Assembly: GCA_964536885.1 (NCBI GenBank) | Contig: CAZHYP010000002.1 | Span: 1 to 33,654, forward strand | Origin: an uncultured Gammaproteobacteria bacterium | Lineage (GTDB): Bacteria; Patescibacteriota; Patescibacteriia; Patescibacteriales; UBA12465 | Length of the DNA stretch: 33,654 nt | Direction: 5' to 3' | Notes under the pieces: model-generated | Told to the model about the DNA's origin: nothing | What the model saw: the letters and a program-made list of their open reading frames with translations, nothing else | Databases searched by the model: none | Made by a program: the position numbers and the translations under genes | In this document: piece by piece, positions 25,395 through 30,281 of the stretch | Layout: every line of letters starts with the position of its first letter | Position numbering within the stretch: position 1 is the first letter of the stretch

Positions 25395-25468
25395 GGGCGC
25401 ATAGCTCAGCTGGTTAGAGCACTTCGTTTACACCGAAGGGGTCCAGGGTTCGAATCCTTGTGCGCCCA
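25395..25468 (+). tRNA. tRNA-Val (anticodon TAC)
   Basis: Acceptor GGGCGCA/TGCGCCC, anticodon stem-loop CTTCG-TTTACAC-CGAAG, T-arm CAGGG-TTCGAAT-CCTTG. Confidence 0.9.
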
Positions 25469-25476
25469 CCCTAATA

Positions 25477-25503
25477 AAAAGCAACCCGTTTGGGTTGTTT
25501 TTT
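25477..25503 (+). repeat. direct repeat L = intrinsic terminator of tRNA-Val (AAAAGCAACCCGTTTGGGTTGTTTTTT)
   Basis: Hairpin CAACCC-GTTT-GGGTTG plus T6. Repeated with one mismatch at 29814-29841. Confidence 0.8.
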
Positions 25504-25559: not shown

Positions 25560-25583
25560 CAAAAAATCCAGCAGTTGCTGGAT
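25560..25583 (-). terminator. intrinsic terminator of the M-R-ATPase operon
   Basis: Minus strand: AUCCAGCA/UGCUGGAU stem followed by U6. Lies 22 nt after the ATPase stop codon. Confidence 0.75.
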
Positions 25584-25604
25584 TATTGTGAATTTTTTGT
25601 TTAT

Positions 25605-27767
25605 CTAGAGACTCTTTATATCTGTATATAAGTTTTTTAGATGTTCATCTGACATGTCTAATAGAGGCTCATACATAAAAGAATTTAAGTGAATGTTTTC
25701 TGGTGTCATTAAATTAACCTGATCAAGTATTTTTATTTTTTCTTCTTCTGTGGTTCCATATTCCTGTTTAAATCTGTCAAATAACACGCGGGTCTGATAT
25801 TTAGCGATTGGTGTTTTATCTGATATTCTACTTAATATATATTTTTCAGCCTGCAATCTTATTGCCATTGATAATATTATTTTATTTTCTAGGTTTATTC
25901 CATTTGTTGCCGTCAAACAATCATCAGCTAATTCAAAAATTAGCTCTATTACTTTTTTTGTTTTATTTGTAAAATTTATCGTTAAATTTGGAAAATTTTG
26001 TTTATATATATCTTCTAAATCACCTTTTGTTATATCTTCCGACGTATCTTTTATGTGTAATACAGAAGTGAGTGTTAAAAAAGATGTGTCCGCTGCTCCT
26101 TTTGTATATTCTATAATATTTCTAACAAATGCTAATGAAGCTATAAACTTTTTGTCTTGGTCAAGATGCCCCATGAAATCCTCAAAAGGTTTAAAATGTT
26201 CAGCTCTTACAAGTTTTGTTTCATCCTTTGTTTTTTCAACCATTAAACAATGTCCATCTCTGGATATATTTAATCTCTCTTTTGCTGTTCTAAAAAAATC
26301 AAAATTATGTGTTAAAATTATGTGAAAAAAATGATCACTTTCTGTCATCTCTTTTAGGTATGCTATGATTGCATATTTATTTTGATAATCAAATGAATCG
26401 GCAATATCATCAATTATAAATAAGGTTTTTTGGTTATCCTTCATTCTGGCTTGTACTTCAAATATTATATTCAACAAGTATAAGGCTCTTTTTTCTCCGC
26501 CACTTAATATTTTTATTAATTCTTTTTGTTCAACTGGAGCTTCGTCTCCTCCATCATTTTCTTTAAATACAAAAGAAATAGTTGGCGTATCCGTCCCAAG
26601 TATGGCATCTTCTTGATTTTGTATCATTAATCTAAATGGAACAAAAAATCTTTTATTATATGTATCTATAACTCTTGCCCAATCAGTAGCCTCTAACTTC
26701 GCTTGTTTTATGATTTCATCAATATCCTTTTTACTTTCAGTGTATTTATTTAATAAATTTGTGTATAGTTCGGTGTTGCTTTTTAAATATGATATCCAAA
26801 GTTTTTGTCTAAAGCCGGCAATATTTTCTAATTCAGTAATAATTTTTTCATTTTCGATTAAGTATGTTCTAAAATTTCTTAACTCAGCATTTTTTATTAA
26901 AGCTTTTTCTATATCATTAAATGCTTTAACGAGTGCCGGGTTATTTAAAATTGATGTTTTTTCTTCTTCAATAACTTTTTCTAATTCTTCTTCTGATCCG
27001 ATTTGTTTGTCATCAGCATCTTTGCCATGTAAAAAAACTGAGTGTTCTGCAGCAAAAAAACCATTTTCTACAAGATTCTTTGCTATTGTGGACGCATTAT
27101 TATGATTAAAAACACCTTTTTTAAAGTATTGAGATGCTTCCACTAGCTCATTATATTTATTAATATAGTCTAAGAGCTTAGTTTTAAAATCTTTTGTTTC
27201 TAAAAAAGACAGAACTTTTTCATTAAAAATTTCTTTATATACTATATCTGAAAACAAAGGCACTGTTTTGTCGGTAACTCTTGGTTGAGTACTTTCAAGC
27301 GCCACTAAAAAAGATTCGGTGTTATGAATAAATGCATCAGATATTTCATTCTCTATTCCGCTCTTAAGTCCACTCAATTGTTTTAATTCTGTTATTAACT
27401 TATCTTTTTCTTTGTTTATTTCTTCGTGTATTAAATCGTACTTATCTTTAAGGGTTTTATTTACTAATAGTGTAGATAGCTTTTCTGATTTAAAGAATTC
27501 GTTGTATGAGTCTATTACAAAGACTTCACCTGGCAATAGGTTTTGTCCGTTTTCTTTTTTAATATCTCTTTTTGGTATTCTCGAGGGAAATATTCTGTCT
27601 TTAGAAAGAGCATTGTTCTCTAAATCAGAAAAAGTATTTGCGAATGATGTTTTCATTGCTCCATTTGGGGCATAAATTATAAAAGAATGTCCATCTGAAA
27701 AATCAAATGATGTTTCTAATTTTTTTATTCCGTAGCAATTTTCTAGTAATAAGTTTAATTTTTCCAT
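25605..27767 (-). CDS. PrrC/RloC-like (AAA_13-type) ABC ATPase with degenerate Walker A and an uncharacterised C-terminal domain
   Basis: 720 aa. Walker A-like YAPNGAMKTS (aa 32-41), about 380 aa of helical insertion, ABC signature LSGGEKRALYLL (421-432), Walker B/D-loop LFIIDDIADSFD (449-460), H-loop ILTHNFDFF (484-492), then about 220 aa of C-terminal domain. Confidence 0.6.
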   Translation of the reverse strand: MEKLNLLLENCYGIKKLETSFDFSDGHSFIIYAPNGAMKTSFANTFSDLENNALSKDRIFPSRIPKRDIKKENGQNLLPGEVFVIDSYNEFFKSEKLSTLLVNKTLKDKYDLIHEEINKEKDKLITELKQLSGLKSGIENEISDAFIHNTESFLVALESTQPRVTDKTVPLFSDIVYKEIFNEKVLSFLETKDFKTKLLDYINKYNELVEASQYFKKGVFNHNNASTIAKNLVENGFFAAEHSVFLHGKDADDKQIGSEEELEKVIEEEKTSILNNPALVKAFNDIEKALIKNAELRNFRTYLIENEKIITELENIAGFRQKLWISYLKSNTELYTNLLNKYTESKKDIDEIIKQAKLEATDWARVIDTYNKRFFVPFRLMIQNQEDAILGTDTPTISFVFKENDGGDEAPVEQKELIKILSGGEKRALYLLNIIFEVQARMKDNQKTLFIIDDIADSFDYQNKYAIIAYLKEMTESDHFFHIILTHNFDFFRTAKERLNISRDGHCLMVEKTKDETKLVRAEHFKPFEDFMGHLDQDKKFIASLAFVRNIIEYTKGAADTSFLTLTSVLHIKDTSEDITKGDLEDIYKQNFPNLTINFTNKTKKVIELIFELADDCLTATNGINLENKIILSMAIRLQAEKYILSRISDKTPIAKYQTRVLFDRFKQEYGTTEEEKIKILDQVNLMTPENIHLNSFMYEPLLDMSDEHLKNLYTDIKSL

Positions 27768-27768
27768 A

Positions 27769-28845
27769 TTATCTTATAAATCTTATCTGTAGATTTAATT
27801 TTATATATAATTCACCATTTTCTTGATAAATTTTACCAAAGCCATGTTTATGAGTGCCCCCTGTTTCGAATTTTGTATTTTTAAATAAATAATCTTGAAA
27901 AGAGTCCATATTATAGAGATGATAACAGACCACATCCCCATCTTCTTTTACTATTAAATACCCACCATGAGCTGTATTAAGCCCATCCCATTCTTTGCTG
28001 GGCATCATACCAAGAGCAACTGCACGCAAAAAAGTTTTTATTTTATATTCAAAATCACTTGCTGTTAAATCGTATTTATCTTTTAAATATTGGTTACTTG
28101 CAAGGAGTTCGCAAATTGTTTGTAAATTTGAACTCTCTCCTCTATAAAAACAATTTAAAGCTGTAGCAATTATTTCTGGAAATACTATATCTATTTTTCT
28201 TAGATTATTCTTGAATTTAGAATTTGCCATTGAGTAAAATGATAAGATTCCTCCAGATGCTTCAATTGCTTTAATTTTATCTACAACCTTTGACCCTCCG
28301 TCAATTTGGTTTATTTCAGTATAGTTACCAATAAAATTATTTATTTTATAAATGAAATTTGTGGCCCCAGAAGCATTTAAAAGTGTAGCTGGCGCCCCGA
28401 GCATAGATTTTATACTAAATCCCAGATCTACAATCATAGGAGAGCCACACTCTCTTACTTTTGCTGTTAAGTCTGCTTTATGGCTATTTCCAGCTTTTAT
28501 TTGTGAGCACCCTAATTCTGTCATTAATTCTTCTGCCAACGGAACAGAAAATGCGCCAGTAGATTCTTTTATTGTTTCAAATATTCTACTTATGCAAGAC
28601 TTAATTTTTGTTTGGTTTACAGCACCAATAATTGTTTTATCTAATTTTGTTATTTCAATATTTTCACCATTGAACTTATATAATTTTCCAGTCTGGCCAG
28701 GCTCTTCTCTTAGAACCCCGATAACAGGGTAATGTTTGTCATTTATTCTATTTAATTCTGAGTCAGCAAAAAAAAGCTTTCTTTCATCAAGAACTTTTAG
28801 AAAAGTATAAATCTCGCTCCATTCACCCTTATTACCCTTTATCAT
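27769..28845 (-). CDS. type II restriction endonuclease, probably HpaII family
   Basis: 358 aa. The N-terminus MIKGNKGEWSEIYTFLKVLDERKLFFAD resembles, from memory, the N-terminus of HpaII-family enzymes. Overlaps the upstream C5-MTase gene by 14 nt. Family call unverified. Confidence 0.5.
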   Translation of the reverse strand: MIKGNKGEWSEIYTFLKVLDERKLFFADSELNRINDKHYPVIGVLREEPGQTGKLYKFNGENIEITKLDKTIIGAVNQTKIKSCISRIFETIKESTGAFSVPLAEELMTELGCSQIKAGNSHKADLTAKVRECGSPMIVDLGFSIKSMLGAPATLLNASGATNFIYKINNFIGNYTEINQIDGGSKVVDKIKAIEASGGILSFYSMANSKFKNNLRKIDIVFPEIIATALNCFYRGESSNLQTICELLASNQYLKDKYDLTASDFEYKIKTFLRAVALGMMPSKEWDGLNTAHGGYLIVKEDGDVVCYHLYNMDSFQDYLFKNTKFETGGTHKHGFGKIYQENGELYIKLNLQIRFIR

Positions 28846-29722
28846 ATTTCTTTAAGGTGTTGATGATTTGTTTAGCGTAGGCTGTTATAGCCGGAACAGC
28901 AACGGCATTGCCTAGCTGTTTCATGGCTTGGGAGTTGGTAACAGGAAAAATATAGTCTTCTGGAAAGCCCATCATTCTTTTTCCCTCTGTTGGCATTAGT
29001 CTTTTTACTTCGCCATCCACTATGTATGAATCCCAATTATGTCTATCTCCTATTTTAGATCCTCGCCCACCAACTCTTAATGTATATCCTATCTTCTTTT
29101 CGCATTTCCCTTTGAAAATATCGTCCATAGTCTTTTTTAATTCTGTTGGTTCTGGAAATTCGAATTTAATATCTTTATCTTTGAAACCAACCATAAACAA
29201 ACGTGGTCTATGTTGTGGCACACCGAAATCTGAAGCTTTAACTATTTTGTAATAAAAAGAATAGCCAAGGTCTTTTTCTATAGTTTTTTTGATAGTGGCA
29301 AAAGTTTTCCCGTCATCATGGTTTAGTAAATGTCTGACATTTTCAAGAAAAAATGCTTTTGGTTTTTTTTCTTTTATAATGTCAGCTATGTGAAAAAACA
29401 AGTTTCCACGGTCATCTTTAAAGCCCTTTTTAAAGCCAGATTGACTAAATGGCTGACAAGGAAAGCCTCCGCAAATAACATCAAAATCAGGTATATCTTT
29501 AGGAATTACCTTAGTTATATCTCCAACAAATTTATCTTCTTTAAATATTTTTGGTGATTTTTTTTCGAAGTTAGCTTTATAGGTTTTTCTGGCTGATTCG
29601 TCCCATTCGGACACAAAAACACATTCAGCCCCAGCATCATCAAAGGCTAAATGAAAACCACCTATACCAGCAAATAAATCAATAAATTTATAGCTTTTCT
29701 TATTTTTTATGGTCTTTTTCAT
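28832..29722 (-). CDS. DNA (cytosine-5)-methyltransferase
   Basis: 296 aa with C5-MTase motifs in canonical order: I FIDLFAGIGGF, IV GGFPCQPFS, VI FLENV, VIII QHRPRLFMVGF, IX/X MGFPEDY...QLGNAVAVP. Compact target-recognition region. Confidence 0.9.
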   Translation of the reverse strand: MKKTIKNKKSYKFIDLFAGIGGFHLAFDDAGAECVFVSEWDESARKTYKANFEKKSPKIFKEDKFVGDITKVIPKDIPDFDVICGGFPCQPFSQSGFKKGFKDDRGNLFFHIADIIKEKKPKAFFLENVRHLLNHDDGKTFATIKKTIEKDLGYSFYYKIVKASDFGVPQHRPRLFMVGFKDKDIKFEFPEPTELKKTMDDIFKGKCEKKIGYTLRVGGRGSKIGDRHNWDSYIVDGEVKRLMPTEGKRMMGFPEDYIFPVTNSQAMKQLGNAVAVPAITAYAKQIINTLKKYDKG

Positions 29723-29813
29723 AATATTTTTTATAAAATTAGTATATCATTTTTTTTGTTTTATATCTATTTTCCTTCCACCTACATTTTTGTTGTGTTT
29801 TTCACCTTAAAAC

Positions 29814-29841
29814 AAAAGCACCCCGTTTGGGTTGTTTTTTT
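29814..29841 (+). repeat. direct repeat R (AAAAGCACCCCGTTTGGGTTGTTTTTTT), degenerate copy of the tRNA-Val terminator
   Basis: One A-to-C mismatch relative to 25477-25503, which weakens the stem. No upstream plus-strand gene that it could terminate. Confidence 0.8.
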
Positions 29842-29867
29842 ATGCTTTTCCTTTTACAATTAAAACC

Positions 29868-30281
29868 ATGAAGGAATATATTACTCACAGTCCTGAAGAA
29901 ACAGCTGCTTTAGGAGAAAAAATTGGACAATCTTGCCAAGGAGGTGAGGTAATTTTGTTATTGGGTAATTTAGGGGCTGGTAAAACTTGTTTTACCCAAG
30001 GACTGGCAAAAGGTTTGGGCGTTAAAGGACCGGTAAATAGTCCAACTTTTAATTTAATGAAAGTTTATAAAATTAAAACTGGAGTATTGTGTCACATTGA
30101 TGCTTATCGCTTAGACTCCGGCAACGATTTAATTGCTATTGGGCTCGATGATTATTTAAAAAAGAAAGACGCCATTGTGGTTATTGAATGGGCAGAGCGT
30201 GTCAAAGATATTTGGCCAAAAAATAAAATCAAAATTGAATTTAAAAATTTTAAAGACGGACGTAAAATAAAAATATTTTAA
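29868..30281 (+). CDS. tsaE: tRNA threonylcarbamoyladenosine biosynthesis ATPase TsaE
   Basis: GNLGAGKTCFTQGLAKGLGV...VNSPTFNLMKVY...HIDAYRL...IEWAE. Start placed at ATG 29868, because the TTG at 29832 lies inside repeat R. Confidence 0.9.
   Translation: MKEYITHSPEETAALGEKIGQSCQGGEVILLLGNLGAGKTCFTQGLAKGLGVKGPVNSPTFNLMKVYKIKTGVLCHIDAYRLDSGNDLIAIGLDDYLKKKDAIVVIEWAERVKDIWPKNKIKIEFKNFKDGRKIKIF

Follow-up and report, generated by a model that had tools for sequence, protein, structure and literature searches.

The stretch of DNA analysed here, 33,654 nt of contig CAZHYP010000002.1 and hereafter called the window, encodes on its minus strand a 720-aa ATP-binding cassette (ABC) ATPase (25605..27767 in the list of open reading frames, ORFs). 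The gene is an intact member of PDC-S46, a large and horizontally spread family, and we lean towards reading its product as a stand-alone module, a single ABC-ATPase polypeptide that travels as mobile cargo of defence and restriction-modification (RM) islands and would act as a second layer behind RM. The PADLOC model of PDC-S46 covers the whole protein (E=9.7e-266, 882 bits; aa 1-720, model positions 1-718 of 719), the helical insert and the C-terminal domain each match the same model when searched alone, and we see no sequence-level difference that would set it apart from a member.

PDC-S46 is held in PADLOC as a single-gene 'phage defence candidate', one of 145 PDCs. These were picked out through guilt-by-embedding, as genes within loci of BREX, DISARM and type I RM, and are explicitly no more than candidates (Payne et al. 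2024 preprint, 10.1101/2024.01.29.577857). The window adds a context, for here the ATPase gene comes third in a type II HpaII cassette, probably in the genome of a member of the Patescibacteria; the embedding screen looked at BREX, DISARM and type I RM, so that such a type II context lies outside it. We found no mention of PDC-S46 in the literature searched or in the supplements of the source preprint, and no published description of a recurrent placement of PDC-S46 genes after type II RM pairs. A first-pass annotation of this DNA, made from the sequence alone, had called the pairing undescribed; that view survives for the recurrent position behind type II systems, not for the family itself, which was already in PADLOC as a candidate. 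Its broader proposal, that the context is that of a defence candidate, agrees with the PDC-S46 match and with the RM enrichment described below.

A word-indexed search retrieved 6,335 proteins of the PDC-S46 family, and an exhaustive search gave, at 50% identity, at least 1,980 clusters with E<=1e-3, or 791 with E<=1e-30; almost all have a length of 715-745 aa. The family occurs in at least 412 GTDB species representatives (43-58% identity), which span nearly all bacterial phyla and include one Woesearchaeote, and copies are also carried on 29 plasmids and 11 viral (IMG/VR) contigs. Because there are thousands of full-length homologues in which the motifs are conserved, the 720-aa ORF is real and more than a product of chance. 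Homologues are annotated as 'hypothetical protein', 'AAA family ATPase' or, on plasmids CP140800.1 and NZ_CP098804.1 and in the UniRef entry of one homologue (P0042), 'phage infection protein', an unsupported label behind which we found no evidence and which seems to be a propagated annotation. Two other models gave weak matches to the window ATPase over the signature/Walker B region, namely PADLOC PDC-S06, which is of similar length (740 positions; E=9.7e-10, aa 419-503), and mad8 of MADS (E=3.3e-7). In both the likeness is confined to the ABC core, over some 85-260 aa, and the insert and the C-terminal domain are unmatched.

An SMC/Rad50-like head with a Met-Lys P-loop

In the AlphaFold2 (AF2) model of the whole protein (mean predicted local distance difference test score, pLDDT, 84.9) an ABC head is split by a helical insert and followed by an extra C-terminal domain. 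This is the ABC/SMC-type organisation that the first-pass annotation had described, and both the fold and the motif matches support it. Foldseek places the model nearest to the heads of SMC, cohesin/condensin, Rad50/SbcC and RecF proteins (E down to 8e-7) and also retrieves defence ATPases, among them those of retron Ec83, retron type I-A, PARIS (AriA) and Wadjet (JetC), with E of 5e-5 to 6e-4. The traits of the ABC superfamily are present, from the split head and the fold itself to the Walker A Lys, the signature, the Walker B Asp, the D-loop and the H-loop His; it departs from the norm where the Gly before the Lys is replaced by Met and the catalytic Glu by Asp.

The non-canonical Walker A motif, A33-P-N-G-A-M38-K39-T40, lies at 27648..27671 on the minus strand. 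The earlier annotation had found the motif itself, over a span of 27645-27671 that also takes in S41, and had described it as degenerate. Conservation was assessed in 140 divergent homologues (35-56% identity) and in 121 closer ones. The former share the form [AS]-x-N-G-x-M-K-[TS]-S, with M38 conserved in 98%, K39 in 99%, N35 in 96% and S41 in 98%, and in the latter M38 and K39 are invariant. Since M38 and K39 are conserved family-wide, the odd Walker A is a selected hallmark of the family and not decay.

The motifs of the C-lobe (26292..26507, minus strand) comprise the signature L421-S-G-G-E425, within LSGGEKRAL (aa 421-429), the Walker B and D-loop D453-D454-I-A-D457-S-F-D460, within LFIIDDIADSFD (aa 449-460), and the H-loop T486-H487-N488, within ILTHNFDFF (aa 484-492). 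D453 and D454 of the Walker B are each conserved in 99%, which puts an Asp at the usual position of the catalytic Glu, and the signature L-S-x-G-E, the D-loop and H487-N488 are likewise conserved across the family. All residues with which such an ATPase normally touches nucleotide are kept. From the Met-Lys P-loop and the DD Walker B we infer a slow-hydrolysing, switch-like site.

The head had also been assigned to the AAA_13 family, an assignment on which scans of the full-length protein and of its halves differ. Against Pfam the full-length protein gives a sub-threshold SMC_N match only; AAA_13 (PF13166) is unreported by hmmscan even at E<=0.1, and 0 of 56 family members carry it. When the two halves are scanned separately, AAA_13 is the best family for both, with 38.2 bits for the C-lobe (aa 419-529; gathering score 36; model positions 498-615 of 713) and 16.7 bits for the N-lobe, and model positions 616-713 are unmatched. 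The head is SMC/Rad50-like and marginally AAA_13-like, and the AAA_13 match stops before the C-terminal domain. The disparity between full-length and fragment scores is a technical caution for automated annotation of this ATPase family.

The best folds, those of SMC, Rad50/SbcC, RecF and JetC, are DNA-handling ABC proteins, and they speak for an SMC/Rad50-like accessory that binds or bridges DNA (such as ends or unmodified DNA) and either aids the neighbouring restriction enzyme or acts on what it has cut; in that case the C-terminal domain would serve to bind DNA or a partner. The insert and the conservation pattern argue otherwise. The coiled coil is short, with neither a hinge nor a zinc hook, and the near-invariant His, Glu, Asp and Asn residues of the C-terminal domain look more catalytic than DNA-binding.

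The helical insert

The insert covers about aa 100-375 (~275 aa; 26643..27470, minus strand; bounds from AF2 secondary structure), and its match in PADLOC is to PDC-S46 only. In the model it consists of two long helices and a globular helical apex. The first-pass annotation had correctly noted the lack of an RloC-type CxxC zinc hook: the protein has three Cys residues only, C11, C507 and C617, and no CxxC among them. At the apex, aa 214-242 (nt about 27042-27128) hold the motif YFKKGVFNHNNA...NGFFxAxH, which is invariant in relatives of at least 50% identity and much less conserved in the divergent set. This motif may be a lineage-specific sensor surface.

The C-terminal domain and the anticodon nucleases

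The C-terminal domain (aa 520-720; 25608..26210, minus strand) is all-alpha and, from its model and conservation, a candidate effector. Modelled alone it is compact, with ten helices, a pLDDT of 88.3 and a predicted template modelling score (pTM) of 0.87. Eleven positions, R549, N550, H571, K629, R637, E641, H693, N695, E700, P701 and D704, are conserved in at least 96% of homologues, the divergent set included, and several of these near-invariant residues fall in the stretch NLMTPENIHxNSFMYEPxLD. Such a pattern looks like that of an active site or a ligand site.

The first-pass annotation had proposed that R549, E553 and H571 recall the catalytic triad of the anticodon nuclease PrrC. These residues, like the motifs quoted for the head, are found where it placed them when the sequence is read (nt 26055-26123), with the spacing R-x3-E-x17-H. 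R549 is invariant and H571 is conserved in 99%, and this arrangement, together with an architecture of ABC head and C-terminal domain in one polypeptide and the AAA_13-like head, speaks for a PrrC/RloC-type anticodon nuclease that would be silenced by contact with the HpaII RM enzymes and freed to cut tRNA upon phage anti-restriction. The details do not follow. The triad of PrrC and RloC is Arg-X3-Glu-X31-52-His (PMC2610378), against x17 here; E553 is conserved in 84% only, with D and Q as the commonest substitutes; and no Ser stands beside the His of the three residues. The HEPN signature is Rx4-6H (PMC3710099), and the C-terminal domain has no Rx4-6H in which both residues are conserved.

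Searches for similarity gave the same answer. The domain has no Pfam match at E<=10, and in PADLOC it matches PDC-S46 and, weakly, PD-T4-9_A (E=0.009), and no PrrC, RloC or HEPN model; the full protein likewise matches neither a PrrC nor an RloC model of PADLOC. A profile of the domain against all PDB sequences found nothing at E<=10. Foldseek returned no significant match, the best hits having E=0.5 and template modelling (TM) scores of at most 0.3 in the PDB, with no HEPN structure among them, and E=1.0 in BFVD. A few Foldseek matches to HD domains (E ~4) were rejected because the domain has no conserved HD doublet. By every test run, the identification of the C-terminal domain as a PrrC, RloC or HEPN nuclease is not supported.

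In a large protein database the profile of the domain recovered fragments of the same ATPase family only. Dozens of independent 217-aa 'proteins' (P0269-P0387) correspond to the C-terminal domain and start near the conserved Met508. Most are gene-call fragments, because they lie on contigs of ~1 kb; the few on long contigs (such as P0334 on 106 kb and P0360 on 174 kb) may represent either genes that have been split or domains encoded on their own.

Genomic context across the family

Neighbourhoods were sampled at 76 loci for partner clusters, 80 loci for the distance to a DNA methyltransferase and 81 loci for HpaII linkage, with methyltransferases from iterative hidden Markov model searches as a proxy for RM. 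A methyltransferase lies within 500 bp of the ATPase gene at 11 of 80 loci, within 3 kb at 21 and within 5 kb at 25. Methyltransferase density drops with distance, with 6.7 per 100 kb in the first 2 kb and 0.5 per 100 kb between 8 and 10 kb (ratio of near to 4-10 kb density 4.7, p=7e-5), which bears out the recurrent RM linkage that the earlier annotation had proposed to look for. At 13 of the 80 loci an RM gene stands directly 5' and co-directional. The neighbouring families include type I S subunits, ResIII, HSDR_N, N6_N4, Eco57I and N6 methylases and type ISP enzymes, as well as DpnII and PstI endonucleases, Vsr, MADS-like components and nSTAND3. RM linkage is real but promiscuous, and extends over type I, type IIG and several type II families.

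No partner gene is conserved. The largest neighbour cluster occupies 5 of 76 loci, on which count a fixed partner was rejected, and this, with the stand-alone copies on plasmids, agrees with the definition of PDC-S46 as a single gene with no obligatory partner. Linkage to HpaII (2 of 81 loci only) was likewise rejected as a trait of the family, and type I linkage is a minority across it. At three loci (L058, L071 and L072) the Pfam-confirmed order is hsdM-hsdS-ATPase-hsdR, so that members of PDC-S46 are embedded in type I RM, in the slot between hsdS and hsdR that prrC takes in the type Ic EcoprrI locus. Among type II cases, one locus reads DpnII-N6_N4 methyltransferase-ATPase with a 2-nt gap and resolvase/recombinase genes nearby, and another has N6_N4 methyltransferase-MvaI/BcnI-ATPase inside an integrase/Rep/primase element.

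These neighbourhoods bear on the DNA-directed accessory introduced above. In its favour, where the ATPase lies in an RM operon it is in most cases the final co-directional gene, and RmuC/DUF2130 and helicase-type genes are also among its neighbours. An accessory of this kind is, however, difficult to reconcile with plasmid copies that stand alone without any RM system, or with the lack of any conserved Mre11/SbcD-like or kleisin-like partner, and on the whole we consider it unlikely.

The plasmid copies bear equally on a third explanation, in which the ATPase serves the mobile element itself, through post-segregational killing, stabilisation or exclusion of competitors, and the RM link reflects shared residence on islands and plasmids. 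Integrases, recombinases and Rep/primase genes lie nearby; plasmid copies stand alone amid toxin-antitoxin (TA) modules, HNH and restriction endonucleases and insertion sequence (IS) elements, and of the 29 some sit beside TA and partition genes; and the window cassette is itself flanked by repeats at a tRNA gene. But the peak of methyltransferase density within 2 kb is tighter than general co-residence on islands, the ATPase can be embedded inside type I operons, and no antitoxin-like partner is conserved. Service to a mobile element also shades into defence, as many genes of this kind have both roles, and as an explanation in its own right it receives little credence from us.

The anticodon-nuclease explanation gains from the members found in the prrC slot and from the tight coupling of the ATPase to the endonuclease gene in the window. 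It loses by the RM partners, which are unrelated from locus to locus or absent, a finding that argues against a conserved protein-protein interface for silencing, and by the occurrence of the same HpaII pair without the ATPase. We regard it as very improbable. PrrC-style direct silencing by a cognate RM enzyme is unlikely as a general rule, because the partners are unrelated or absent while the conserved surfaces of the ATPase are the same everywhere.

The cassette in the window and its cargo slot

In the window the ATPase follows a C5 cytosine DNA methyltransferase of 296 aa (M; 28832..29722; Pfam DNA_methylase, PF00145, E=1.7e-86; NCBIfam dcm) and an HpaII-family type II restriction endonuclease of 358 aa (R; 27769..28845; Pfam RE_HpaII, PF09561, E=1.1e-107 over its full length; PADLOC REase_II), all three on the minus strand. 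The M and R ORFs overlap by 14 nt, and the R/ATPase junction reads AGA-TAA, a single base t, then ATG-GAA-AAA, so that the ATPase starts 1 nt past the endonuclease stop codon. A promoter-like site (29741..29769, minus strand; TAGATA-17-TATACT with TG, a consensus match only) precedes the methyltransferase gene, and a terminator-like hairpin (25565..25584, minus strand; 8-bp stem, four of its pairs GC, then a T-rich tail) lies 21 nt past the ATPase stop. No terminator-like site was found on the minus strand between the three genes. To judge from these signals, M, R and the ATPase form one predicted co-transcribed unit that ends in the hairpin, and an RE_HpaII endonuclease with a C5 methyltransferase in one operon is to be read as a type II RM system of the HpaII family. 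The tight packing and the co-transcription with an HpaII-like pair that the first-pass annotation had described are upheld by the junctions, the Pfam matches and the uninterrupted operon.

CCGG is not avoided in the window, with 54 sites observed against 50.7 expected (observed/expected 1.07), and CCGG avoidance was accordingly rejected as a sign of RM activity; there is no sign here of long RM residence. Other tetramers are under-represented in the window (observed/expected of 0.56 for TGCA, 0.64 for GGCC, 0.65 for CGCG and 0.70 for GATC), which may stem from other restriction pressures, past or present. There is no Vsr gene beside the C5 methyltransferase of the window; in four related loci (L002 and L096-L098) Vsr comes directly after R.HpaII.

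The 4.3-kb cassette of M.C5, R.HpaII and ATPase is exactly bracketed by direct repeats of 27 nt. The left copy, AAAAGCAACCCGTTTGGGTTGTTTTTT (25477..25503), is att-like, can also form a hairpin, and starts 7 nt past a tRNA-Val (TAC) gene (25395..25470, plus strand; ARAGORN) that is the probable integration target; it is identical in 26 of 27 positions to the right copy (29814..29840; repeat search and direct read), which lies just 5' of tsaE. The cassette has a GC content of 30.3% against 34-35% in the flanks, and the repeats look like the attL and attR of a decayed integrative island. The TTG at which the listed tsaE ORF (29832-30281) begins overlaps with the right repeat. Translation probably starts instead at the ATG at 29868, for the 137-aa product that is called on the public contig.

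A close relative (L082), whose ATPase is 80% identical, has the same tRNA-proximal flank and the same lspA-tsaE site around a 10.9-kb island with DUF3800, M, R.HpaII, the ATPase, several hypothetical genes and two integrases. In L002, with an ATPase 82% identical, the order is R.HpaII-Vsr-ATPase, and the link to HpaII is kept only in the closest relatives (80-83% identical). L002 (CAZYNT010000008.1) comes from a metagenome-assembled genome labelled 'uncultured Gammaproteobacteria' and is syntenic with the window in the SMC/cmk region, at 68-77% nt identity; one of the two taxonomic labels, Gammaproteobacteria for L002 or Patescibacteria, is probably wrong. Among the 19 members of the 90% cluster of the window methyltransferase is one whose name assigns it to a Patescibacteria group bacterium, and because of this the attribution of the window to the candidate phyla radiation (CPR), as the first-pass annotation had it, is plausible.

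The comparison of cargo drew on relatives from that cluster in which this M.C5-R.HpaII pair also lies at the dksA-lspA-tsaE site. Past the M-R pair, L096-L098 carry Vsr and then a convergent 914-aa AAA_21-type protein, L099 and L100 carry an S8 peptidase, which in L099 precedes an AAA ATPase, and L093 carries three hypothetical genes, with a Schlafen/AlbA_2 gene upstream. Since the same pair has other cargo in these relatives, the position behind the RM genes is a slot for variable defence cargo in Patescibacteria. Although co-transcribed with the HpaII pair in the window, the ATPase is not functionally tied to it, and the notion that the two are hard-wired, which the earlier annotation had put forward, is not supported, given this evidence and the rarity of HpaII linkage in the family. 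Two of the alternative cargoes, the 914-aa protein with its weak AAA_21 match (L096:8391-11135) and the 820-aa S8 peptidase with the 295-aa AAA ATPase behind it (L099:5719-9071), may be further defence candidates.

Discussion

Set beside the known RM-linked ATPases, the window protein resembles PrrC in having an ABC N-domain and a C-terminal domain in one polypeptide, an AAA_13-like head and a linkage to RM, and some PDC-S46 genes share the position of prrC. It differs in its insert of ~275 aa, where PrrC has no large one, in the Met before the Walker A Lys and the DD Walker B, and in a spacing of x17 against x31 in the triad of PrrC, with a C-terminal domain that has no PrrC or HEPN similarity. 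PrrC is always linked to type I RM (PMC2610378), and prrC is embedded in the hsdMSR neighbourhood (PMC3710099), whereas the window has a type II pair and the family is RM-linked in about a quarter of its loci, to RM systems of many types. RloC is comparable in layout, its ABC head being interrupted by a helical or coiled-coil insert and followed by a C-terminal domain, and RM linkage is only occasional in both, with 8 of 72 for RloC (PMC2610378) and 21 of 80 within 3 kb for the family studied here. RloC, however, bears a CxxC zinc hook at its insert in place of a globular helical apex, and its motif R-x3-E-x36-52-H is missing from the window ATPase, which has no match to the RloC model. AriA, PtuA (Septu/retron), GajA and JetC have in common with the window ATPase the fold of the ABC head and the logic of a sensor ATPase in a defence island, although none of the PADLOC models of PARIS, Septu/retron, Gabija or Wadjet matches it. 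The nucleases of those ATPases (AriB, PtuB, the TOPRIM domain of GajA, and JetD) are described as separately encoded. The window ATPase has no conserved partner, and its fused C-terminal domain is the only candidate output.

We can now sketch how a stand-alone module behind RM might work. Two SMC/Rad50-like heads would engage on ATP. With a Met before the Walker A Lys and a DD Walker B, the contacts through Lys, Thr, Asp and His would be kept and hydrolysis would probably be slow, so that the head might serve as a switch. The ~275-aa helical insert would sense a cue associated with infection, and the C-terminal domain would be the output, most likely a hydrolytic effector that halts growth or destroys nucleic acid. 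Such a protein could form a second protective layer behind whichever RM system carries it, with no need of a particular partner. A generic trigger of the RloC or PARIS kind, such as DNA damage, unmodified DNA or anti-restriction proteins, would fit better than PrrC-style silencing, though the choice among these is speculation.

Several points weigh against a defence module of this kind. PDC-S46 is itself only a candidate family, with a plausible role in defence. About 70% of the loci have no recognisable methyltransferase within 5 kb. A Met for the Gly before the P-loop Lys could impair nucleotide binding altogether. The case for an effector role is drawn from the pattern of conservation, because the C-terminal domain has no detectable similarity to a nuclease or to any other enzyme. 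A more specific proposal, that PDC-S46 is a widespread abortive-infection system with a novel all-helical effector fold that is neither HEPN nor that of any known nuclease, a head gated by the Met-Lys P-loop and the DD Walker B, and a function as generic back-up behind any type of RM, type II among them, so that the principle of PrrC would reach past type I, is possible but in our view doubtful.

For a mobile gene the family is unusually well conserved, and it is also large; a defence database already lists it as a candidate. Distinctive among its features are a near-invariant Met in a P-loop position where Gly is almost universal; a C-terminal domain of 200 aa that is confidently folded in its model, holds about ten polar residues that hardly vary, and lacks any structural neighbour; and a recurrent position as the last gene in RM operons of unrelated types, CPR genomes included. 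If PDC-S46 proves to have no role in defence, the ATPase would be ordinary island cargo. If it does act in defence, it would be a single-gene system in CPR bacteria, a group about whose defence repertoires little is known, and it would broaden the idea of RM plus a suicide back-up beyond PrrC and type I RM.

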